From the UHGV virus genome UHGV-0191547: a stretch of DNA of 26,648 nt; one strand, 5' to 3'. Under the pieces are notes generated by a model. That model ran no database searches. It worked only from the letters and a program-made list of their open reading frames with translations, and had not been told where the DNA came from. Made by a program: the position numbers and the translations under genes. Numbering within the stretch: position 1 is the stretch's first letter; every line of letters starts with the position of its first letter. This document shows, one piece after another, positions 2,284 through 20,064 of this stretch. This DNA is from a virus.

Positions 2284-2324
2284 TAATCAATATTAATAAT
2301 CGGGGCCGTTGGCCCCTTTCTTTT

Positions 2325-3014
2325 ATGGTGAAAACTATGATTCATGTTCGAACAGGACAATTTGCGGCGGTGGTAGACGGCAGGAGGTATGCGTTTAATC
2401 CCTGCTTCGCTGCAATGGCTAAGATCGGCAGTGACAGCGAACTGGTCGAATACTTCGCAACCATCCACGGTGGCAAATATCCATCACGATTGCCAGCAGA
2501 TCCAGACCTTCGCAATCGCATTCTGGCGCGGTGTTATGGTGAGTTAGTGCAAACGTCAATACACATCCTGAAATGTTGCTCAGACAACGAAATAGGCCCG
2601 TTATTGGGTGAATGTAGGTTTACTCCTTCCGGCAAATTGCGACTAAAACCCGGACTGATGCCGACCAGTGACGTTATCACGCTGGCGCAACATTGCATGT
2701 ACCACGGTTTAATCGGTGACGGGCCAGAAGAAGACGCCGGAGAGATCCGGGAAGGGGAATATAAGCCGACTTTTAACGTGCTGGAATTCGTTTATTCTGC
2801 CGTAGCTCACCTGGGGTTATCAGAATCAGAAGCATGGAATATGACAATGACCGGATATAGAGCCGCCGTACGCGCTAAAACGCCGCCAGACGAAAGAAAC
2901 GAGAGAAGCAAGCCAAACGTTCACATAAATAAACGTGCTTATGACGAGCAAATGGAGGCCGCTAAAAAGGCACTAGAAAGAATGAAAAATCGAGAGCAAG
3001 AAAAAGCCCGGTAG
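2325..3014 (+). CDS. Tail assembly chaperone-like protein (positional, G/GT equivalent)
   Basis: 229 aa ORF immediately upstream of the tape-measure region with a basic/acidic C-terminus; no motif recognised. Confidence 0.3.
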   Translation: MVKTMIHVRTGQFAAVVDGRRYAFNPCFAAMAKIGSDSELVEYFATIHGGKYPSRLPADPDLRNRILARCYGELVQTSIHILKCCSDNEIGPLLGECRFTPSGKLRLKPGLMPTSDVITLAQHCMYHGLIGDGPEEDAGEIREGEYKPTFNVLEFVYSAVAHLGLSESEAWNMTMTGYRAAVRAKTPPDERNERSKPNVHINKRAYDEQMEAAKKALERMKNREQEKAR

Positions 3015-3029
3015 ATCCGGGCGTTTTTG
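3006..3029. terminator. Rho-independent hairpin terminator, probably bidirectional
   Basis: GCCCGG-tagat-CCGGGC stem-loop followed by GTTTTTG, with an A-run on the other side. Confidence 0.6.
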
Positions 3030-3039
3030 TTAAGTTCGC

Positions 3040-3360
3040 TTATGCTATTTTTTCGTAAAGCACATTCATCTGGGTGCGAATCACTGTTAATATATTGATT
3101 GCTGCGTTCTTATCAATGCGTTTATTCGCTACTATTTTTGTTTTCCCATCAATAACAACCAGATCTGCGTGCAATACATGGTTGAAGTTGACAATGTAAT
3201 AATACTGTTTATCGCCAACATGTTGAACATATGCACCATTTAGATTTCCTTTATACCCACAATCACGCTCTGCGACACCGAAGTCAAATTCGCGGTTCAT
3301 CTTGCGATTATATGCTACTTGTTTATGTTCCCATTTTCTCATCCATTCATCGCGCTTCAT
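3040..3360 (-). CDS. Hypothetical protein, antisense cargo cassette A
   Basis: 106 aa ORF 9 nt downstream of the lipoprotein gene on the - strand, RBS AAGGGTGA; AT-rich by eye. Confidence 0.5.
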   Translation of the reverse strand: MKRDEWMRKWEHKQVAYNRKMNREFDFGVAERDCGYKGNLNGAYVQHVGDKQYYYIVNFNHVLHADLVVIDGKTKIVANKRIDKNAAINILTVIRTQMNVLYEKIA

Positions 3361-11384: not shown

Positions 11385-14300
11385 ATGAGTAGCGGCGGCG
11401 GCAAAGCAAAAACACCAACTTTAATTAACGATAATCTATATCACAAACAGTTTTATCGTGTACTCGACATTATTTCAGAAGGTCCGATTTATGGTCCTGT
11501 TAATACCAATGCGCCATTAAACAGCGTAATGCTTAATGACACCCCTGTAACTGACGCGAACGGCAATACCAGCATCCCCGGTATTAGCGTAGCGTGGCGC
11601 AATGGTACGATAGATCAATCACCGATTAACGGTTTTAACGCCATTGAATCAACCGTTATTGTTAACGCACAGGTTAAACACGATACACCAATAATCAGGA
11701 CCGTTTCCGATCCTAACGTAAACCGCGTTCGCCTGAATATCGGCGTCGATTCACTTGTACAATCTGACGAGCAAAGCAATCAACATAACACATCGGTTAT
11801 GATGATGATTGACGTGAAGCCTTCGTCTTCTTCTACGTGGACGCTTGTTAAAGACGTTACTATAGGCCCAGGTAAGATCAGCGGAGAATATCTTGAAGCG
11901 CATATTATCAATGCACCAGATGAAAAACCGTTTGATATTCGCGTTCGCCGTGTAACCGCTGATAGCACAAGCGATCTGTTGCAGAATGATACGCGATGGA
12001 GTAGCTACAGCGAAATAATCGACGATAATTTGTCTTATCCTCACACCGCTGTAGCTGGCGCGGTAATTGACCATGATCAGTACGCTGACACGCCTACCCG
12101 CACCTATCACCTTCGCGGGCTGATTGTTGATATTCCTGATAACTACGACCCGGAAAAGCGCACTTATTCCGGTTTGTGGCTTGGCGGCTTCAAACAGGCG
12201 TACACCAATAACCCAGCATGGATCTTCCGCTATCTGGTTAAAAACGAGCGTTTCGGCCTTGCTCGTCACGCTGGCTATATTGACGTTGACGACGGCGCAT
12301 TATATACGCTTTCTCAATACTGCGACCAGTTGGTTGATGATGGCTACGGCGGCCTTGAGCCTCGCATGACGCTTAACGCTTACATCACAGAGCAAATGAG
12401 CGCCCGCGACTTACTGGACAATATCGCCGGGATGTTCAGGGGTATCGCGTTATGGGACGGGCAACGCCTTACCGTGATGATTGATGCACCACAAGACCCG
12501 ATCGCCACCATTACAAATGCAAATGTCGTTGATGGCGCGTTTACTCGTTCAAGTATCGCCCGCGCAGAATGCTACAACGCCGTGATCGTATCATGGACTG
12601 ACCCGGAAAACGGATGGGAGCAATCAAAAGAGTATGTAGCAGACGATGAACTGATCGCCCGTGATGGTTACAACGAAACCACGTTAGAGGCGTTCGGGTG
12701 CACATCACGCGGGCAAGCATACCGCGCGGGCAAGTGGCTGATAGAAACAGCAAAACGCGAGCCGTCAAAATTCACGTTTAAAATGGCGCGTGACGCGATT
12801 CACTTTACGCCAGGGGATATTATCGAGATACTCGACAATAACCGCGCAGGCGCTCGTTTAGGCGGCCGCATCGTTGCGAACAACGGCAAAGTAATAACGG
12901 TAGATAAGGTTGACGCCAATTATATCGCCGCTGGGGATACAATCAGCCTTCTTGATAGCGATGGCAAGTTTAAAAAGCATCAGATCACCGGGGTGAGCGG
13001 AAACAAAATCACACTGGCGGCGGCCCCGTCATGGATTCGAAACGGCACTGTTTTTGCTGTATCCACTGAATCAGCAAAACCCGTTTTGTGCCGGATCACC
13101 AGTGTAGCCGAAACAGAAAATAACAGCGTGTACACCATCGAGGCCGCACAGCACGACCCGAACAAGCAAGCAGTGGTCGATGAAGGCGCAATATTTGAAG
13201 TCAACAATGACACGCTTAACCATTTCCGCGTGCCGAACATTGAAAATCTGAAGGTGGTAAACATTGGATCGGAAACAATTCAATGTCGCGCCACATGGGA
13301 AACGCAGACAACAACGCATCGTATGACATTTGAGATCCGCATATATAATGCAGATGGTGCGGTGGTTAAAAGCTATGAAACAACGAAATACAGTTATGAT
13401 TTTTATGGCATTGACGCTGGCGTGTATTCTTTAGGGGTTCGCGGAAGAAATGACACTGGCATGAAGGGCGCGGAAAGTATTGTGGATCTGGTTATTGGTG
13501 CGCCAGCAGCGCCAATAGGTGTTAACTGGGTACCAGGTGTATTTCAGGCTACCGTATACCCGATAAGTAAGACAACGCTAACCACTGATACAGCGTATGA
13601 ATTCTACTATGCAGGGGAAAACCAGATCACAGATCCGGCAAAAATAACCACGGCGGCACAGTTTACCGGGCGCGGGTATCAGTGGACGTTCGGCGGAATG
13701 AACACGGGCCATACTTATTACGTTTATGTGCGTACACGTAATGCTTTTGGCGTGTCAGACTTCGTTGAAGCATCAGGTAAGCCGACAGAAAATTTTGATG
13801 AAATTAGCGATTACGTCACCAAAGACGTGATGAATTCCGAACAATTTAAAGAAATGGTGGGCGACATTAAGGATCTTGGCGATCGCACTGACATTATCGA
13901 AAGTGCAACTCAAGACCTTAAAACAGCTACTGATACCCTAAGCGGAATAACTGAAGGCTTAAGAACTGATACTGATAATTTAATTACAGAAACAGAATCA
14001 ATTAAAGCTGATACTGATTCCCTTAAAAAAGACACTGAAGACCTTTACAAGAAAGTCGAAGAAAACGCCGATGAAATAGGTAAACATGAGGTAAGAATTG
14101 ACTCATTAGAGGTATCAAGCGAAAACGTAGATAATGAACTGGCACAGACAAAAGCAAGCCTACAAAACGCATCGCTTGCTCTTATTAATAATTCGCTTGC
14201 TCAAACTAATACCAGAAGAACGCTGACAGCTCAGATCAAAAACGTGGATTATGAAACTAAGGCGCAAATAGATCGCATTGATAACGTGATTGTCAGTGAA

Positions 14301-16304
14301 AAAGAAGCAAGAGCGGAGGCAATGGAGACAATTACCGCCGAAATCGACACGATGGATAAAAACATCAAAGGTGAGATTGCGCGCGTAGATACTGCCATTG
14401 CCAATGAGAGCCAGGCAAGGGCTGATGCCATCAGTGAAGTTAGCGCAAACATTGACGCACTTGATAGTAAAACAGATGCCAGTGTTAATCGTCTTGATCA
14501 AGCTATCGCAGATGAGGCCAGCGCACGCGCACAGGCTATCAGCAATGTCAATGCGAGCATGACAAATCTTGATAACAAGGTTACAAGCAACGTTTCTAGA
14601 CTTGATCAGGCAATAGCTGACGAATCAAGCGCAAGAGCAGAAGCCGATGATCAGTTAATAGCAAAAAGCGAAAAACTTGATGGTGATCTCGCTATGGCAA
14701 GGGCAAGCCTACAAAACGCTTCGCTTGCTCTCATCAATAATACATTGTCTCAGACAAAGACAAGGCGCACTCTCACAGCGGAGTTCAAACGCGGACAAAG
14801 TGAAACTAAAGCACAAATTGACCGTATTGATAATGTCATTACTGACGAAAAACAGGCAACAGCGGAAGCGTTTGAAACTATCACAGCAGAAATGAACACG
14901 ATGGACTCAAACATTAAAGGAGAAATATCACGATTAGATAAAGTGATCGCGACTGAAACGCAAGCAAGATCTGAAGCTATAAGTAGTGTTAATGCAAGCA
15001 TAAAGACGCTAGAAAGCGACACTGAAGCCAGCGTTAACCGTCTTGATCAGGCAGTTGCTGACGAGGCCAGCGCCCGCGCACAAGCTATCAGCGGAGTAAA
15101 TGCAAGCATCAGCACGCTTGATAGCAAGGTTACAAGCAATGTGACCCGTATCGACAAAGCTATTGCAGATGAGACGCAGGCCCGCACAGACGCAATAAGC
15201 AACCTTAACTCATCGCTTACCAGTACGATTAATTCTAAAGTATCTGAAGTATCAACAGCACTTTCTACGCATGAAGCATCAAGCGCGGAAAAATTCAGCC
15301 AGATCTCAGCGTCTTTCGAAGCTGTAAACTCAAGCATCACGGAATGGTCGCAGACCATGACAACGGCGGACGAGGCATTATCAACCAAAATTGATCAGTT
15401 AACAGTAACCGTTAATGGGAACACAACAGCGATCGAGACGACATCGAAAGCGTTAACCGACTTCAAAGGTAATGTTGATGCGTCATGGTCAATCAAGATT
15501 GCTACTGATAACAACGGCATGAAATACGCTACAGGTATGTCGCTTGGCCTGACTGGTAGCGGGACTAACGTTCAATCGCAGTGTATTTTCCTCGTTGACC
15601 GCTTCGTGTTAATGACCGCAGCAAACGGCACATATACAACGCCTTTCTATGTGTCTAATGGTGCAATGTATGTGAAAGAAGCGTTTATTAAAAACGCATC
15701 AATAGGTACAGCTAAAATTGCAGATGCAGCCATTACTATGGCTAAAATTGTTAATGAAATAAAATCATCAAACTATGTTGCTGGTTCTAAAGGTTGGAGG
15801 ATAACACAAAGCGGATCATCAGAATTTAACGATGTTGTGGTAAGGGGCGAAATCCATGCTAATAGCGGTAAATTCAAAGGAACTGTAGAAGCTACATCCT
15901 TTGTTGGTGATGTCGCATCTACTAACGTTATACCGCAATCATCATTCCCTGGGACAAGTACAAGCGGATCTCGATCTGTTACGAAGACGTATAAAGATTC
16001 ATCATCAAGCTCGCTTTCGAAAACAGTTTTCGTAATGATTCCTTACCATCTTACTTATTATACTTATTCAGGATCATCAACAATAAAAGTAACAATTGAT
16101 ATTAATGGCAATAGCAAAACATATAACGTAGTAAGGGCGGCATCATCGCCTCAATTCGGATTTACGGTATCACATTGCGTAACTGGGATTACTGCTCAAA
16201 CAGTTACGATAAAAATAACAGAGGAATACACCAACACCGGAACATCAGCAGAAAGAAGGCCAGGTCTTGCACTTGTTACAAGAAGCTCAGGATCATGGTC
16301 ATAA
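11385..16304 (+). CDS. J: Central tail fibre / host specificity protein J with an expanded coiled-coil repeat region
   Basis: 1639 aa; N-terminal ISEGPIYGP, FGCTSRGQAYRAGKWL and the C-terminal KYATGMSLG...FLVDRF block match recalled lambda gpJ; about 500 aa of heptad-like repeats inserted between them. Confidence 0.9.
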   Translation: MSSGGGKAKTPTLINDNLYHKQFYRVLDIISEGPIYGPVNTNAPLNSVMLNDTPVTDANGNTSIPGISVAWRNGTIDQSPINGFNAIESTVIVNAQVKHDTPIIRTVSDPNVNRVRLNIGVDSLVQSDEQSNQHNTSVMMMIDVKPSSSSTWTLVKDVTIGPGKISGEYLEAHIINAPDEKPFDIRVRRVTADSTSDLLQNDTRWSSYSEIIDDNLSYPHTAVAGAVIDHDQYADTPTRTYHLRGLIVDIPDNYDPEKRTYSGLWLGGFKQAYTNNPAWIFRYLVKNERFGLARHAGYIDVDDGALYTLSQYCDQLVDDGYGGLEPRMTLNAYITEQMSARDLLDNIAGMFRGIALWDGQRLTVMIDAPQDPIATITNANVVDGAFTRSSIARAECYNAVIVSWTDPENGWEQSKEYVADDELIARDGYNETTLEAFGCTSRGQAYRAGKWLIETAKREPSKFTFKMARDAIHFTPGDIIEILDNNRAGARLGGRIVANNGKVITVDKVDANYIAAGDTISLLDSDGKFKKHQITGVSGNKITLAAAPSWIRNGTVFAVSTESAKPVLCRITSVAETENNSVYTIEAAQHDPNKQAVVDEGAIFEVNNDTLNHFRVPNIENLKVVNIGSETIQCRATWETQTTTHRMTFEIRIYNADGAVVKSYETTKYSYDFYGIDAGVYSLGVRGRNDTGMKGAESIVDLVIGAPAAPIGVNWVPGVFQATVYPISKTTLTTDTAYEFYYAGENQITDPAKITTAAQFTGRGYQWTFGGMNTGHTYYVYVRTRNAFGVSDFVEASGKPTENFDEISDYVTKDVMNSEQFKEMVGDIKDLGDRTDIIESATQDLKTATDTLSGITEGLRTDTDNLITETESIKADTDSLKKDTEDLYKKVEENADEIGKHEVRIDSLEVSSENVDNELAQTKASLQNASLALINNSLAQTNTRRTLTAQIKNVDYETKAQIDRIDNVIVSEKEARAEAMETITAEIDTMDKNIKGEIARVDTAIANESQARADAISEVSANIDALDSKTDASVNRLDQAIADEASARAQAISNVNASMTNLDNKVTSNVSRLDQAIADESSARAEADDQLIAKSEKLDGDLAMARASLQNASLALINNTLSQTKTRRTLTAEFKRGQSETKAQIDRIDNVITDEKQATAEAFETITAEMNTMDSNIKGEISRLDKVIATETQARSEAISSVNASIKTLESDTEASVNRLDQAVADEASARAQAISGVNASISTLDSKVTSNVTRIDKAIADETQARTDAISNLNSSLTSTINSKVSEVSTALSTHEASSAEKFSQISASFEAVNSSITEWSQTMTTADEALSTKIDQLTVTVNGNTTAIETTSKALTDFKGNVDASWSIKIATDNNGMKYATGMSLGLTGSGTNVQSQCIFLVDRFVLMTAANGTYTTPFYVSNGAMYVKEAFIKNASIGTAKIADAAITMAKIVNEIKSSNYVAGSKGWRITQSGSSEFNDVVVRGEIHANSGKFKGTVEATSFVGDVASTNVIPQSSFPGTSTSGSRSVTKTYKDSSSSSLSKTVFVMIPYHLTYYTYSGSSTIKVTIDINGNSKTYNVVRAASSPQFGFTVSHCVTGITAQTVTIKITEEYTNTGTSAERRPGLALVTRSSGSWS
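14154..15200 (+). repeat. Intragenic tandem duplication in J (two diverged units of about 550 bp, roughly 183 aa each)
   Basis: Both units open with GCAAGCCTACAAAACGC (14154 and 14704) and contain nested VNRLDQA(I/V)ADE(A/S)SARA sub-repeats. Confidence 0.8.
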
Positions 16305-16306
16305 AA

Positions 16307-16335
16307 AATAACCCCGCTTCGCGCGGGGTTTTCTT
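16307..16335. terminator. Rho-independent terminator after J (CCCCGC-ttcgc-GCGGGG then TTTTCTTTT)
   Basis: Hairpin plus T-run; reverse complement of the 8112-8134 element. Confidence 0.6.
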
Positions 16336-16584
16336 TTAGTAGTTAGCTACACAATTCGACGGGCTACCTATGCGGCGCATGTTGTGATCGAGTTCATGAC
16401 ACCATTGACCAGTATATGGCAGTTTTTCAGTGTCATATACAAGATGACCATTAGCATCATAGACGATTTCTTGTGGAATCACTCCGCTATTTGGCAGGTT
16501 ATGCAATGCAGCTTCTTTGTCAACAGCGCAACCAGTAAGAGCAACAGCCGCAGCGAATAAAACCACTTTGAACATGTTTTTCAT
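16336..16584 (-). CDS. Small lipoprotein (82 aa), antisense cassette D between J and the tail fibre
   Basis: MKNMFKVVLFAAAVALTGC signal peptide with lipobox A-L-T-G-C; single gene between two terminators. Confidence 0.6.
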   Translation of the reverse strand: MKNMFKVVLFAAAVALTGCAVDKEAALHNLPNSGVIPQEIVYDANGHLVYDTEKLPYTGQWCHELDHNMRRIGSPSNCVANY

Positions 16585-16761
16585 TTTTTAATCCTCGTTC
16601 TTGTTAGCTCATCCGGTTCATCCGGTGGCTTAAATATCCGACAAAACCACATTTCGTATATTGATATAAATCAATAAATACATTTTGTATAAGTCAAAAA
16701 TGTAACATAGATCACAAAATGGTAGAATTATTCCGTTAATTAACATAATGGAGTCATTGCG

Positions 16762-18552
16762 ATGATTTATACAACGGGAACAATTGCCATTAACGGCAAT
16801 ACTGTTACAGGCACGGGAACAAACTTTTCCGCGCCGCTTTCTCTCATCCGTGTAGGTTGCACGCTCATTGCCATTAGCAATCCTATCCAGATCTTTACCA
16901 TCACAGAAATTAAGAGCGGTACTGAACTGTCAGTGACGCCAGCGGCTAACCCTGCAATTGCTGCCGGGGCAAAATTCAGCATTCTGCTTTCTGACTCTAT
17001 CTCAGTTGATGGGCTTGCCCAGGATGTAGCGGAAACACTTCGTTTTTATCAGGAAAAAGAAGACGAAATATCCAGCGCAATAGATGGCAGCAATATTGGC
17101 TTAGGTCCAGAGCCGCGCGATTGCGTCGATATATCAGGCGATCCGTCTTCTTACGTTGGCTTTTTGCGCATAAAGGAAACGACTAAGGGTTTTCCTTCTG
17201 TAGCGGCTGGTGAATCATTTTTGAGTGGATTTATCTGTCAACGAGACACGACGCCTTCATATACAGGCGTCTTTGTCGGTTGGGCTACGCGATCACTTTA
17301 TACGTATACATGGGTCGCAACATCAGGTCCGAACTGGACACGACACGCAAGAAAAGATGAGGTGGATAGGCTTGTTCAAAGAACAGGAGAAACTCGCGTA
17401 CGCGCTCAAAACGCAAATAAATTCCTTACCGTCTATGATTCAGGATCGTGGGGTTATTATGACTCAGAGGCTAGTAAATGGCTACCGCTTCCAGTTCTTG
17501 CTGGAGGCACTGGTGCGGGAAACGCAGAAGAAGCAAGAAATAATTTAAATCTTGGTGAAAGCAACGCGGTTAAATTCAAAAACCTTACGTTAATAGGGGC
17601 GCTAGATGCAAATTTAGGCATGCTCGTAAAAACTGGAAGAGACTGGAATACTCAGCACACTGACAATATCCAAAAATTTATACCAATGGCAGGAAGCACA
17701 AACGGACCCGCCGGAGCAATGGTACTCGGTGGCTTCCATGTGCAATACAGCACAAATTACGCTGTGCAATTCGGGGGTCGAAATTCCGGTTTTTGGGGTA
17801 GAACAATTGAAAACGGAACAGTTCAGGAATGGCGTCAACTAGCTACGCTTAACACATCCGGTCAAAAATGGACTGCCGGTCAGCATTTTGTGACGACAAA
17901 AATTAACTCTTATGATTTCACAAGACGTTTAACTATCGATGTGATAGAAAACGCAAAAACAAACGCACGGTTACGCTTATGGGGATCAGAAACAAGGCAG
18001 TCCGTTTTAGAATATGGACTCTCGAACGCTGAAACCGATGAGTATAATACATATGGCTTTTATTGCCAGCTTAACCCAGACGGAGTAATTAGTTTTCAGG
18101 TTAACGGCGTAGTAAACTGCACAGCAGTTAATCAGACTTCAGATCGCGATCTGAAGGACAACATTCAGGTTATAGGTGATGCAACTGAAGCAATCCGTAA
18201 AATGAACGGGTACACCTACACCCTCAAGGAAAACGGCCTGCCTTACGCTGGCGTTATCGCTCAAGAGGTAATGGAGGCGCTGCCGGAGGCTGTGGGATCG
18301 TTTACTCATTACGGTAAAGCATTACAAGGCCCGACCACTGACGGCAACGAGCTACGCGAGGAAACGCGTTACCTCAATGTTGACTACGCTGCGGTGACTG
18401 GTTTACTTGTTCAGGTGGCACGCGAAACAGATAACCGCGTCACCGAACTGGAGGAAGAAAACGCCAGCTTACGAGCTAACATTGCCGTCATGGATGAGCG
18501 GATCACAAAACTTGAAGCGCTTGTCAGGCAGTTAACCGGAAGCGAAGAATAA
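16762..18552 (+). CDS. Tail fibre/tailspike protein with C-terminal intramolecular chaperone (peptidase S74-like) domain
   Basis: 596 aa; C-terminal TSDRDLKDNIQVIGDATEAIRKMNGYTY...YAGVIAQEV followed by a coiled coil is the S74 autoproteolytic chaperone signature. Confidence 0.75.
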   Translation: MIYTTGTIAINGNTVTGTGTNFSAPLSLIRVGCTLIAISNPIQIFTITEIKSGTELSVTPAANPAIAAGAKFSILLSDSISVDGLAQDVAETLRFYQEKEDEISSAIDGSNIGLGPEPRDCVDISGDPSSYVGFLRIKETTKGFPSVAAGESFLSGFICQRDTTPSYTGVFVGWATRSLYTYTWVATSGPNWTRHARKDEVDRLVQRTGETRVRAQNANKFLTVYDSGSWGYYDSEASKWLPLPVLAGGTGAGNAEEARNNLNLGESNAVKFKNLTLIGALDANLGMLVKTGRDWNTQHTDNIQKFIPMAGSTNGPAGAMVLGGFHVQYSTNYAVQFGGRNSGFWGRTIENGTVQEWRQLATLNTSGQKWTAGQHFVTTKINSYDFTRRLTIDVIENAKTNARLRLWGSETRQSVLEYGLSNAETDEYNTYGFYCQLNPDGVISFQVNGVVNCTAVNQTSDRDLKDNIQVIGDATEAIRKMNGYTYTLKENGLPYAGVIAQEVMEALPEAVGSFTHYGKALQGPTTDGNELREETRYLNVDYAAVTGLLVQVARETDNRVTELEEENASLRANIAVMDERITKLEALVRQLTGSEE

Positions 18553-18581
18553 GAGGTGATGTGCGAAGAACATCGCCGCGC

Positions 18582-18610
18582 GAAACGAGGCTAACGCCTC
18601 GTTTCTTTTT
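18582..18610 (+). terminator. Rho-independent terminator after the tail fibre gene
   Basis: GAAACGAGGC-taac-GCCTCGTTTC hairpin followed by TTTTT. Confidence 0.65.
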
Positions 18611-18864
18611 GTGTACCAAATAGTGACCAAAATGATAAATCAAAAACAAAAACAAAACATAACACATTGAATACAAATGAATTTTTCATTAAGTTATCCA
18701 TTCAAAAGATAAGTAGGTAACGCCATTTCTATCATTTCATATCGTGTCACATCGTCACCGTTTCACGTTGATTTCAAAAGAAATATTTATTCTATCGTGT
18801 CATATCGTTTTCTATCGTGATACTATCCATGCGTAAAATGTGTGTACCAAATAGTGACCAAATT
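18610..18864. promoter_or_regulatory. attP-like AT-rich region with a 22-bp perfect direct repeat and TATCGTG heptamer repeats
   Basis: TGTGTACCAAATAGTGACCAAA at 18610-18631 and 18841-18862; three or more TATCGTG copies in between; located immediately 5' of int. Confidence 0.4.
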
Positions 18865-20064
18865 ATGCTTACAGATACCAAATTACGAAACATCCACGGC
18901 AAGCCATATGACGGCCCGGAAGAAGTCCCGGACGCGGGCGGATTGTCTGCCAGGATAAGCCCGCGCGGAGTTATATCTTTCCAGTATCGCTACCGATTCA
19001 ACGGCAAGCCTCGACGGATGAAGATCGGCACATACGGAGAAATAACACTCAAAGAAGCGCGGGCGGCGGTGGCGGAGCATAAGGAAGTCTTAAACTCAGG
19101 ACGAGATCCATCGATCGTAAAAAGAATGAAATTGTCACGCGTTACGACACGGGCAACGATTGAGGATATTGTGAGGGAATACATGGAATCACCGCAGGCA
19201 AGAAACATGGTCAACTATAAGCAAGTCGAGGCGATGCTAAGTAAGCACATTGTCAGACCATGCGGTAGCTATATCGTCGATGATATGGACTCCATAATGT
19301 GGGAGGGGATTTTTAGAAAGGTAGCCAATGGTGGCGCGCCCGTTCAGGCCGGGATAGTCTTAAACAGGATGAAGGCGGTGATAAAATATGCCATGCGACG
19401 CCGCCGCGTGGAGCGTGACGACATATCATTACTACGCGTGAAAGACGTAGGCAAAAACCCGGCACAAAGGAAACGCGTCTTATCAATACAAGAGATTCAC
19501 CATCTAATCAGCATTATAGACAGTTCAAAAATGGCGCGGCTAAATCAGATATTGATGAAGCTGATTATATTCACCGGATGCAGAACAAGCGAACTAACAA
19601 ACGCAAGGCGCGAGCATTTCGATCTTGATAACTGTGTGTGGACCGTGCCGGGCGCATTGAGTAAGAACAGAAACGAGTTTAAACGCGGTTTATCCGCCGT
19701 TAGCGTTGATTTATTGCGTGAAGCTATGGATTTGCACGGCTTTAATTTTATCTTCGTTCCCGTGCTTTCTGGAAGGGATGAAGCGGTAGACAGGAGCGTG
19801 CCGAAAACAGCCGCAAGGGATTTGATGCTAAGGATGGGCGGCGAGCCGTGGTCGTGTCACGACTTGCGCCGCACTGTAAGGACAAACCTTTCAGCGCTTG
19901 GCATTGCGCCGCACGTAGCAGAAAAGGTTTTAGGTCATAAACTGGCGGGAATGATGGCTATATATGATCAGTATGATTACGTGAAGGAGCAAATAGAGGC
20001 GATGAATAAACTGGCTGATTACTACATGAAGCCCATTGATTTACAAAATGAAATAACGTCCTGA
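18865..20064 (+). CDS. int: Tyrosine recombinase / integrase, P4 type
   Basis: Start chosen at MLTDTKLRN; N-terminal arm-binding-like segment GGLSARISPRGVISFQYRYRFNGK; C-terminal HDLRRT...LGH...Y catalytic box. Confidence 0.9.
   Translation: MLTDTKLRNIHGKPYDGPEEVPDAGGLSARISPRGVISFQYRYRFNGKPRRMKIGTYGEITLKEARAAVAEHKEVLNSGRDPSIVKRMKLSRVTTRATIEDIVREYMESPQARNMVNYKQVEAMLSKHIVRPCGSYIVDDMDSIMWEGIFRKVANGGAPVQAGIVLNRMKAVIKYAMRRRRVERDDISLLRVKDVGKNPAQRKRVLSIQEIHHLISIIDSSKMARLNQILMKLIIFTGCRTSELTNARREHFDLDNCVWTVPGALSKNRNEFKRGLSAVSVDLLREAMDLHGFNFIFVPVLSGRDEAVDRSVPKTAARDLMLRMGGEPWSCHDLRRTVRTNLSALGIAPHVAEKVLGHKLAGMMAIYDQYDYVKEQIEAMNKLADYYMKPIDLQNEITS

Follow-up and report, generated by a model that had tools for sequence, protein, structure and literature searches.

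The gene at positions 16,762 to 18,552 of the window, which is the whole stretch of 26,648 nucleotides analysed (UHGV virus genome UHGV-0191547), most probably codes for the side (lateral) tail fibre in a temperate siphophage of E. coli that belongs to the mEpimmI group, a fibre that would mature by a five-step self-cleaving mechanism. We put the probability of this reading at about 85%. The window itself represents an mEp021-like coliphage of this group in unintegrated form, recovered from human gut metagenomes. The open reading frame, domain assignments, dyad alignment, heptads, mosaic boundaries and synteny observed in it are described below, and the coordinates are collected in Table 1.

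Exactly one ATG open reading frame in the ORF listing spans the gene, and its M1 is invariant among 120 relatives. The protein is 100% identical to the public sequence P0001, 'tail protein [Caudoviricetes sp.]', and has 2393 homologues with E ≤ 1e-5. The lengths of the 120 best matches range from 518 to 1043 aa with a mode at 853-854 aa. All PHROG matches are tail-fibre families, which span the fibre over its full length (best phrog_6578, E = 1e-156), and scans of the fibre with NCBIfam and PADLOC produced no match. The site homologous to the hairpin found after the gene carries a terminator annotation in mEp044. In the AT-rich spacer upstream, TGGTAGAAT resembles an extended -10 element by consensus only and falls below the scan's own criteria.

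Table 1. Features of the fibre gene and its surroundings in the window (aa, residues of the fibre unless stated).
Feature	Position	Strand	Remarks
Lipoprotein gene	16336..16584	-	82 aa, lipobox LTGC; divergent to fibre; neighbour, separate from fibre
Possible extended -10 element TGGTAGAAT	16720..16728	+	AT-rich spacer 5' of fibre gene
Ribosome-binding site GGAG	16750..16753	+	8 nt 5' of ATG; sequence reading
Side tail fibre gene (probable)	16762..18552	+	596 aa, 64.9 kDa precursor; stop codon included; ORF listing
N-terminal anchor domain	16762..17085	+	aa 1-108; tail attachment, by homology
Proximal beta-rich domain	17086..17547	+	aa 109-262; AlphaFold pLDDT ~90 for aa 120-200
Junction motif GGTGAGNAEEARNNLNLG (GGTGA junction)	17503..17556	+	aa 248-265; cassette's left boundary
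Exchanged cassette	17517..18093	+	aa ~253-444; linker and distal tip domain, probable receptor-binding part
Predicted scissile bond T459/S460	18136..18141	+	aligned with T5 Thr1263/Ser1264 and K1F Thr910/Ser911
Catalytic dyad S460, K465 (by alignment)	18139-18141, 18154-18156	+	T5 pb1 and K1F counterparts
S74 intramolecular chaperone domain	18139..18549	+	aa 460-596; 137 aa, 15.2 kDa; Pfam PF13884
C-terminal coiled coil	18439..18534	+	aa 560-591, about 4.5-5 heptads; heptad register
Intrinsic terminator-like hairpin	18582..18605	+	10-bp stem, 6 G-C pairs, T-run; 30 nt past fibre stop

The first-pass annotation had proposed a tail fibre with an S74-type chaperone domain on the strength of the motifs SDRDLKDNI and YAGVIAQEV and a heptad-rich tail, and had suggested a Pfam search. 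The motifs are present at aa 460-468 (nt 18139-18165) and aa 495-503, respectively. The search matched PF13884 (Peptidase_S74) to aa 460-511 over profile positions 1-57 of 58, with E = 1.5e-14 and a score of 54.4 bits, where the gathering score is 22 bits; such a match is far beyond chance. Together with the aligned dyad and the tail-fibre PHROGs, this result supported the proposal as far as sequence allows. The call was correct but routine. The exact protein and relatives annotated 'S74 family peptidase' are already public. S74-ended fibres and tailspikes are also found in phi29/GA-1 and in many automatically annotated phages.

Searches of the PDB with the single sequence and with the family profile did not reach the S74 structures of T5 or endoNF. 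The T5 pb1 and K1F gp17 sequences were therefore taken from a phage collection and compared directly with the fibre. Profile scores were weak (about 5 bits, with E-values from a two-sequence search) and the motif alignment was exact. S460 and K465 align with T5 S1264 and K1269 in the family profile, are positionally identical to K1F S911 and K916, and follow a pattern also seen in S16 gp37 (6F45). The roles of the Ser-Lys dyad have been established through mutagenesis and structures (PMC4690869, PMC8326128), and the T5 cleavage site is known (PMC4690869). A Thr precedes the scissile bond in all three proteins. The window fibre (NQT/SDRDLK) and T5 (INT/SDARLK) have in common the cleavage motif T/SDxxLK with equal Ser-Lys spacing. 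In K1F endoNF, the founder of S74 in MEROPS/Pfam, the site reads IVT/SNGERK, and the Thr, the dyad five residues apart and the GVIAQ downstream are found as in the window fibre.

Of 120 relatives, 118 retain the dyad; the two exceptions are P0023 (S->C) and P0077 (K->E). The C-terminal fragment measures 137 aa in 108 of the 111 relatives in which the strict motif could be located; from Ser to the C-terminus there are 137 aa in the window fibre, 133 in T5 and 154 in K1F. Within the family, the S74 domain has a median identity of 96%. The AlphaFold monomer is poor in this part, with pLDDT values of 35-45 over aa 478-548.

The heptad-rich tail could be assigned a register over aa 560-591. In the best register found within aa 537-596, V560, N567, I574, I581 and V588 occupy the a positions and L563, L570, M577, L584 and L591 the d positions. 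Beta-branched residues at a, plus one Asn, make up a core pattern like that described for the trimeric coiled coil of MyRF (PMC8326128). The AlphaFold monomer forms a helix at aa 534-592, with pLDDT 75-82 over aa 560-590. Weak PDB matches of the stretch (E 0.004-0.9) were designed coiled coils and the trimeric coiled coil of the P22 tail needle gp26. T5 pb1 ends in a trimeric coiled coil, and the one predicted for the window fibre would likewise be trimeric. The Pfam match, the dyad, the 137-aa fragment and the coiled coil support an S74-type intramolecular chaperone as the predicted C-terminus of the fibre.

This chaperone very probably cuts itself off after the trimer has folded. The domain could instead be kept as a permanent trimerisation module, so that the fibre in the virion stays at 64.9 kDa, a reading that we consider unlikely. 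It draws on the missing 'sensor' residues of T5 and endoNF: position -14 is Q446 instead of Arg and position -25 is C435 instead of Asp, so that T5 Arg1250 and Asp1239, which assist the active site, have no counterpart, and neither has endoNF Arg897, the folding sensor (PMC8326128). In those proteins the residues come from the triple beta-helix upstream; in the trimer of the window fibre another residue may take their place in space. A basic residue (Arg or Lys) occurs at -14 in only 2 of 119 relatives. The dyad substitutions in P0023 and P0077 are, in addition, at least tolerated in database sequences. Nevertheless, MyRF cleaves by the same dyad without an upstream sensor residue (PMC8326128), and the retention of Ser and Lys in nearly all relatives within so conserved a domain argues for cleavage. 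As long as the T5 chaperone stays uncleaved, it keeps the purified tip fragment from acting as an inhibitor, which fits a masked receptor site (PMC4690869).

The N-terminal region, which had been suggested to be a swapped receptor-binding module, turned out to be the most conserved part of the protein: aa 1-108 have a median identity of 97% in 119 relatives. The fibre N-terminus matches aa 4-109 of the depolymerases 7VYV, 7VZ3 and 7LZJ (E = 2e-22; E = 9e-30 with the family profile), and the N-terminus of such depolymerases in Klebsiella siphophages is said to tether the protein to the tail (PMC8552709). Because of this conservation and homology, the N-terminal ~108 residues are assigned as a virion anchor and not as a receptor module. 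The proximal domain that follows is less conserved (aa 109-262, median identity 76%) and is present twice in 750-aa relatives, such as P0002.

These top PDB matches prompted the idea that the protein is a tailspike with depolymerase activity and not a binding fibre. This was rejected as highly improbable because the homology is limited to the anchor, ending at aa ~108. RAD2 DpK2 (7LZJ) and 7VYV/7VZ3 share with the fibre a homologous, tail-attaching N-terminal end, but they continue into a beta-helix hydrolase and have no S74 domain, while the window fibre has small fibre domains and an S74 chaperone. Pfam, NCBIfam and PDB sequence searches gave no beta-helix or catalytic-domain match, the models consist of two small beta-rich domains instead of a right-handed beta-helix of ~300 aa, and the fold search returned fibres and no confident lyase or hydrolase. 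The K1F enzyme also differs from the window fibre: it is the tailspike of a podophage and combines a sialidase beta-propeller with a triple beta-helix stalk, all of which are absent here.

The flanks of the fibre gene match mEpimmI prophages of E. coli, and comparison with mEp044 and the other relatives located the exchanged part. In blastn against mEp044, similarity stops at 17516 and is absent over 17517-18093, with both flanks at 91-92%. At the protein level, mEp044_112, mEp021_82 and the E. coli prophage relatives share with the window fibre the gene position, the N-terminal 108 aa and the S74 domain at >90% identity; mEp044_112 is 90% identical over aa 1-271 and nearly identical from aa 452 of the window fibre. 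All of them have another distal cassette (~45-55% identity or less). The prophage relatives go by the names 'pyocin knob domain-containing S74 family peptidase', 'tail fiber domain-containing protein' or 'L-shaped tail fiber protein'. Among the relatives the identity of the distal domain ranges from 9.5 to 99%, with a median of 44%, and a search of 1.84 billion representatives found no more than 46 clusters for the cassette at E ≤ 0.001. The GGTGAGNAEEARNNLNLG motif is single in 96 and double in 16 of 120 relatives. As far as sequence comparison goes, the swapped module is the cassette, between the GGTGA junction and the conserved chaperone.

The distal domain was modelled with a pLDDT of 84.7, and its fold matches in BFVD were other coliphage tail fibres (best E = 8e-10). 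Foldseek against solved structures gave nothing confident (best E = 0.03, TM ≤ 0.35); the weak matches were T4 gp34, the phi812 receptor-binding protein and R-pyocin fibres, those to the R2/R1 pyocin fibres 6CL6, 6CL5 and 6CT8 having E 0.07-0.2 and TM 0.28-0.35, which left the domain without a named fold. The NCBIfam 'pyocin knob' model did not match the fibre, and neither sequence nor fold searches recovered the 'bullet' receptor domain of T5. For the whole chain, the AlphaFold monomer reached only a mediocre pLDDT of 67.8, and searching the PDB for its fold was uninformative (TM ≤ 0.24).

A near-invariant chaperone (96%) beside tips at 10-50% identity, without the Arg/Asp sensor, led us to consider that the chaperone is a trimerisation-and-release module independent of the tip, its cleavage set off, as in MyRF, when the module itself trimerises, and that it forms with the GGTGA junction a plug-and-play scaffold for cassettes. 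We offer this only as a tentative proposal.

Compared with the common 853-aa form, the window fibre is short of one internal module, lacking ~257 aa of mEp044_112, and its 596 aa put it towards the lower end of the lengths in the family. It might thus be a decayed or internally deleted remnant of an ~853-aa fibre with no functional product. We regard this as very unlikely. The frame is intact, with a good ribosome-binding site and terminator, and the junctions coincide exactly with module boundaries. An architecture of 596-599 aa recurs at full length in the diverged relatives P0025, P0043 and P0112 (76%, 74% and 61% identity); the short architecture is therefore a maintained form, and the remnant was rejected. 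The still shorter mEp021 homologue, gp82 (449 aa, S74-positive), is annotated as a virion structural protein; its predicted cleavage at L331/S332 would reduce it from 48.9 to 35.1 kDa.

The gene order in the window is J, exclusion lipoprotein, fibre, attP and integrase. The lipoprotein is 91% identical to mEp044_110 and matches phrog_12984, 'lipoprotein' (E = 4e-27); it is the type-C Lpp of mEpimmI phages, which functions in superinfection exclusion (PMC11893012). The synteny J-lipoprotein-fibre-att is common to the window, mEp044 and mEp021, and with the anchor and the S74 domain it agrees with what defines a side fibre of mEpimmI phages. The mEp021 GenBank record and the group's paper name the product 'tail structural protein; putative tail tip protein', and this paper includes a 'tail tip protein' among the virion proteins detected by mass spectrometry. 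That the protein is an integral component of a baseplate-like tip complex and not a lateral fibre has, in our judgement, only the slimmest chance of being right. The label comes without a stated analysis, and the available portion of the paper is silent on side fibres; there and in the corresponding supplements S74 is nowhere mentioned, and band sizes and peptide maps are absent. The gene lies outside the tail-assembly block, past a terminator and an oppositely oriented gene, its product is hypervariable and modular as receptor-binding fibres are, and the PHROG matches all point to tail fibres.

Lambda Stf has an equal role, as the accessory side fibre of a temperate coliphage, and a similar place downstream of J. 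That the N-terminal region is unlike lambda Stf, as the first-pass annotation stated, was confirmed by BLASTP, in which both Stf fragments, orf-401 and orf-314, gave E values of at least 0.06 against the fibre (best 0.06). Lambda encodes its chaperone in a separate gene, tfa (orf-194), whereas that of the window fibre is built in. The ORF listing contains no ORF, tfa-like or otherwise, from the fibre stop to the integrase gene; the terminator, attP and integrase are directly 3' of the fibre gene and leave no room for one. Closer in design is T5 pb1 (4UW7/4UW8; PMC4690869), like the window fibre a siphophage side fibre with a C-terminal S74 chaperone of ~135 aa. T5 pb1 is, however, 1396 aa long with a long shaft, has a different N-terminal anchor, and shows no sequence similarity to the window fibre beyond the S74 motif region. 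T5 and K1F provide the well-known examples of an S74-ended fibre and tailspike (PMC4690869, PMC8326128).

For a side fibre that cleaves itself, we infer the following pathway from trimerisation to receptor binding. The S74 domain would align three 64.9-kDa chains, with the terminal coiled coil nucleating the trimer, and would template the folding of the beta-rich distal tip immediately upstream. In the folded trimer, K465 would activate S460, and the T459-S460 bond would be cut in every chain. The released chaperone fragment (137 aa, 15.2 kDa) would stay out of the virion, and the mature chains of 459 aa (49.8 kDa) would be held on the tail tip via the conserved N-terminal anchor of 108 aa. 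The distal domain, aa ~284-459, now unmasked, could then bind a receptor on the cell surface, for which a glycan or some other accessory receptor is the most likely candidate. This binding would speed adsorption, and the central fibre J would engage the primary outer-membrane receptor. Host-range variation may arise by swapping the cassette between two 'handles', the GGTGA junction and the S74 domain.

In the group's paper and in GenBank records the fibre gene is labelled 'tail tip protein' or 'hypothetical protein'. The practical value of the analysis is modest and it opens no new biological question. It redescribes the last structural gene of the mEpimmI coliphages, a group defined only recently, as a side fibre that carries its own chaperone and probably sheds it. 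It also places the host-range cassette at aa ~253-444 (17517-18093), which would help to predict or engineer the host range of prophages that are common in the human gut.

The C-terminus of the fibre protein matches Pfam Peptidase_S74 at amino acids 460-511, starting at profile position 1, with 54.4 bits (E 1.5e-14) against a gathering score of 22, and the S74 assignment of the first-pass annotation is correct. The motifs quoted there were found at amino acids 460-468 (SDRDLKDNI) and 495-503 (YAGVIAQEV), and the "heptad-rich tail" was located at amino acids 560-591, where, in the best register, the a positions are V, N, I, I and V and the d positions are L, L, M, L and L. This stretch is a single long helix in the AlphaFold model and gave weak PDB matches to designed coiled coils and to the P22 tail needle's trimeric coiled coil. 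Trimerisation of S74 proteins is driven by a C-terminal triple coiled coil (PMC4690869, PMC8326128).

Structural studies of T5 pb1 and MyRF described S74 catalysis by a Ser-Lys dyad five residues apart, the published pairs being endoNF S911/K916, T5 S1264/K1269 and MyRF S587/K592 (PMC4690869, PMC8326128). The peptide bond cut is the one immediately before the Ser, Thr1263-Ser1264 in T5 (PMC4690869). Judging from the sequence, the counterparts in the fibre protein are the predicted scissile bond T459-S460 and K465. When T5 pb1 and K1F gp17 were compared against a profile of the family C-termini, S460/K465 aligned on T5 S1264/K1269; the profile scores were weak and the motif alignment was exact. 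The cleavage-site motifs are NQT-SDRDLK in the window, INT-SDARLK in T5 and IVT-SNGERK in K1F, and the C-terminal fragment, counted from the Ser, has 137 amino acids versus 133 in T5 and 154 in K1F. Both dyad residues are kept in 118 of the 120 closest relatives. Substitutions were seen in relatives P0023 (Ser to Cys) and P0077 (Lys to Glu); these may be natural variants that do not cleave, or sequencing errors. Cleavage of the fibre is something we infer rather than observe; as computed, the 64.9-kDa precursor would be split into a mature chain of 49.8 kDa and a fragment of 15.2 kDa.

In T5 and endoNF, an Arg at -14 and an Asp at -25 from the Ser act as the sensor of correct folding (PMC4690869, PMC8326128). 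Both are absent from the fibre protein, which has Q446 and C435 at these positions, and a basic residue at -14 occurs in only 2 of 119 relatives. Since MyRF cleaves without an upstream sensor (PMC8326128), this absence makes an active site identical to that of T5 and endoNF less probable and leaves the case for an S74 self-cleaving domain as it was. An S74 domain that stays on uncleaved, for which the missing sensor speaks and against which the retained dyad speaks, is a weak alternative.

We consider it highly probable (roughly 0.85) that the product is a lateral tail fibre, chaperoned at its C-terminus, self-cut at T459-S460, anchored by its N-terminus and directing its distal domain to an accessory receptor. 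The fibre would trimerise and fold starting at the C-terminal chaperone, which the cut would then remove; the N-terminal anchor would hold the fibre on the tail, and the exposed distal domain would bind the accessory receptor, the primary receptor being dealt with by J.

Features of the fibre protein and its surroundings (identities are medians to 119 relatives)
Feature	Position	Strand	Details
J, central fibre	11385..16304		1639 aa
Terminator-like hairpin, bidirectional	16310-16330		between J and lipoprotein gene
Lipoprotein	16336-16584	-	82 aa; lipobox LTGC; 91% identical to mEp044 type-C Lpp
Possible extended -10 element	16720-16728		TGGTAGAAT; in AT-rich spacer (16585-16761) upstream of fibre gene
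GGAG ribosome-binding site	8 nt upstream of fibre ORF		read from sequence
Fibre ORF	16762..18552	+	596 aa; sole long ORF here
N-terminal anchor	aa 1-108		97%
Proximal domain	aa 109-262		76%
Linker	aa 263-283		9.5%
Distal domain	aa 284-451		44% (range 9.5-99%)
S74 domain	aa 460-596		96%
attP region	18553-18870		between fibre gene and int
Strong terminator-like hairpin	18582-18605		30 nt downstream of fibre ORF

The anchor matches the N-termini of the Klebsiella phage depolymerases 7VYV, 7VZ3 and 7LZJ (E 2e-22; 9e-30 with the family profile). 7LZJ is DpK2 of siphophage RAD2, and the N-terminal end of such proteins is said to tether them to the tail; residues 1-190 are absent from the DpK2 model (PMC8552709). 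The homology ends at about amino acid 108, and an enzymatic tailspike is a weak alternative to the fibre reading. The N-terminus had been described as unlike lambda Stf, and the comparison indeed detected no similarity between Stf and the fibre protein; the swapped receptor-binding module that had been placed there is instead the distal cassette, the N-terminus being a conserved anchor. No tfa-like gene was found after the fibre gene in the window.

DNA similarity to phage mEp044 is 92% up to 17516, undetectable at 17517-18093 and 91% from 18094 on. The left break falls at the GGTGAGNAEEARNNLNLG motif (amino acids 248-265) and the right one about 15 residues ahead of the predicted cleavage site. 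Among the 120 best hits, lengths range from 518 to 1043 amino acids (mode 853-854) and the number of internal modules varies; compared with the 854-amino acid mEp044 protein, the form in the window has one module fewer. A decayed remnant is a weak explanation of this shorter form, because the 596-amino acid form recurs in the diverged relatives P0025, P0043 and P0112 and is therefore a maintained architecture. The relatives P0002-P0006, of about 750 amino acids, contain two copies of the proximal module (query amino acids ~182-262, with a GGTGA motif at the end); fibre modules can therefore undergo tandem duplication besides exchange. The distal domain family is small: a search of 1.84 billion representatives gave 46 clusters with E <= 0.001. 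S74 was present in five of six members scanned against Pfam. The distal domain model is good (pLDDT 84.7). A fold search against solved structures gave no confident counterpart (best E 0.03), and a viral predicted-structure library showed resemblance to the coliphage tail fibres navn, EdH4, SHSML-45 and grams (E down to 8e-10, TM 0.36-0.43).

The nearest phage records to the window are mEp044, mEp010, mEp554, mEp013, mEp515 and mEp021. They are the mEpimmI group, temperate siphophages from human faeces that are Nus-dependent and non-lambdoid (PMC11893012). The local order is J, bidirectional terminator, minus-strand lipoprotein gene, fibre gene, attP region, tyrosine integrase gene and early genes. 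J and the fibre gene are transcribed in one direction and the lipoprotein gene in the other; the terminator and this opposing gene set the fibre gene apart from the tail operon. In mEp010, the type-C Lpp was shown to exclude phages that depend on LamB, lambda among them (PMC11893012). In E. coli chromosomes abgT adjoins the fibre side and the integrase side lies about 50 kb off, at the opposite prophage end; the window is therefore an unintegrated phage form, circular or permuted. The fibre-side and integrase-side prophage homologies overlap at ~18704-18714, and this overlap is the expected att core of an abgT-type site. The 22-bp sequence TGTGTACCAAATAGTGACCAAA occurs twice in direct orientation without mismatch, at 18610-18631 and again at 18841-18862, where it falls within the 5'-terminal part of the integrase ORF. 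Repeats of the type TATCGTGTCA(C/T)ATCGT (18727-18755 and 18790-18818) are likely arm sites for the integrase. J has 1639 amino acids versus 1132 in lambda; the extra length is due to a long insert with repeats resembling coiled coils (RLDQAIADE.SARA..., ~aa 830-1340). Its identity to J of mEp044, a LamB-using phage, is 47% over the last 239 amino acids, chiefly in the first half; similarity is low in the last ~120, which form the receptor-binding end, and the primary receptor may therefore differ.

The mEp021 homologue, gp82, has 449 amino acids and the dyad S332/K337; its annotation is "virion structural protein". A "tail tip protein" is one of the virion proteins that the mEpimmI study detected by mass spectrometry (PMC11893012); S74 is nowhere mentioned in that paper, and no protein sizes were found in its text. 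An integral tip protein is a weak alternative to a lateral fibre. Between J and the lipoprotein gene, mEp021 has an additional "virion structural protein" gene, mEp021_80 (putative FlgL-like; 2302-3237, minus strand), which is absent from the window and mEp044. A protein identical to the fibre protein occurs with the same neighbours on the human-gut metagenome contigs ERR589747 and ERZ773186; nr already has an entry for it, named "tail protein [Caudoviricetes sp.]", in which PF13884 is precomputed. NCBI names relatives "pyocin knob domain-containing S74 family peptidase" and "L-shaped tail fiber protein"; the fibre protein is thus an uncharacterised addition to a well-known kind, and its only mildly unusual points are the absent sensor residues and a near-invariant chaperone beside very divergent tips.
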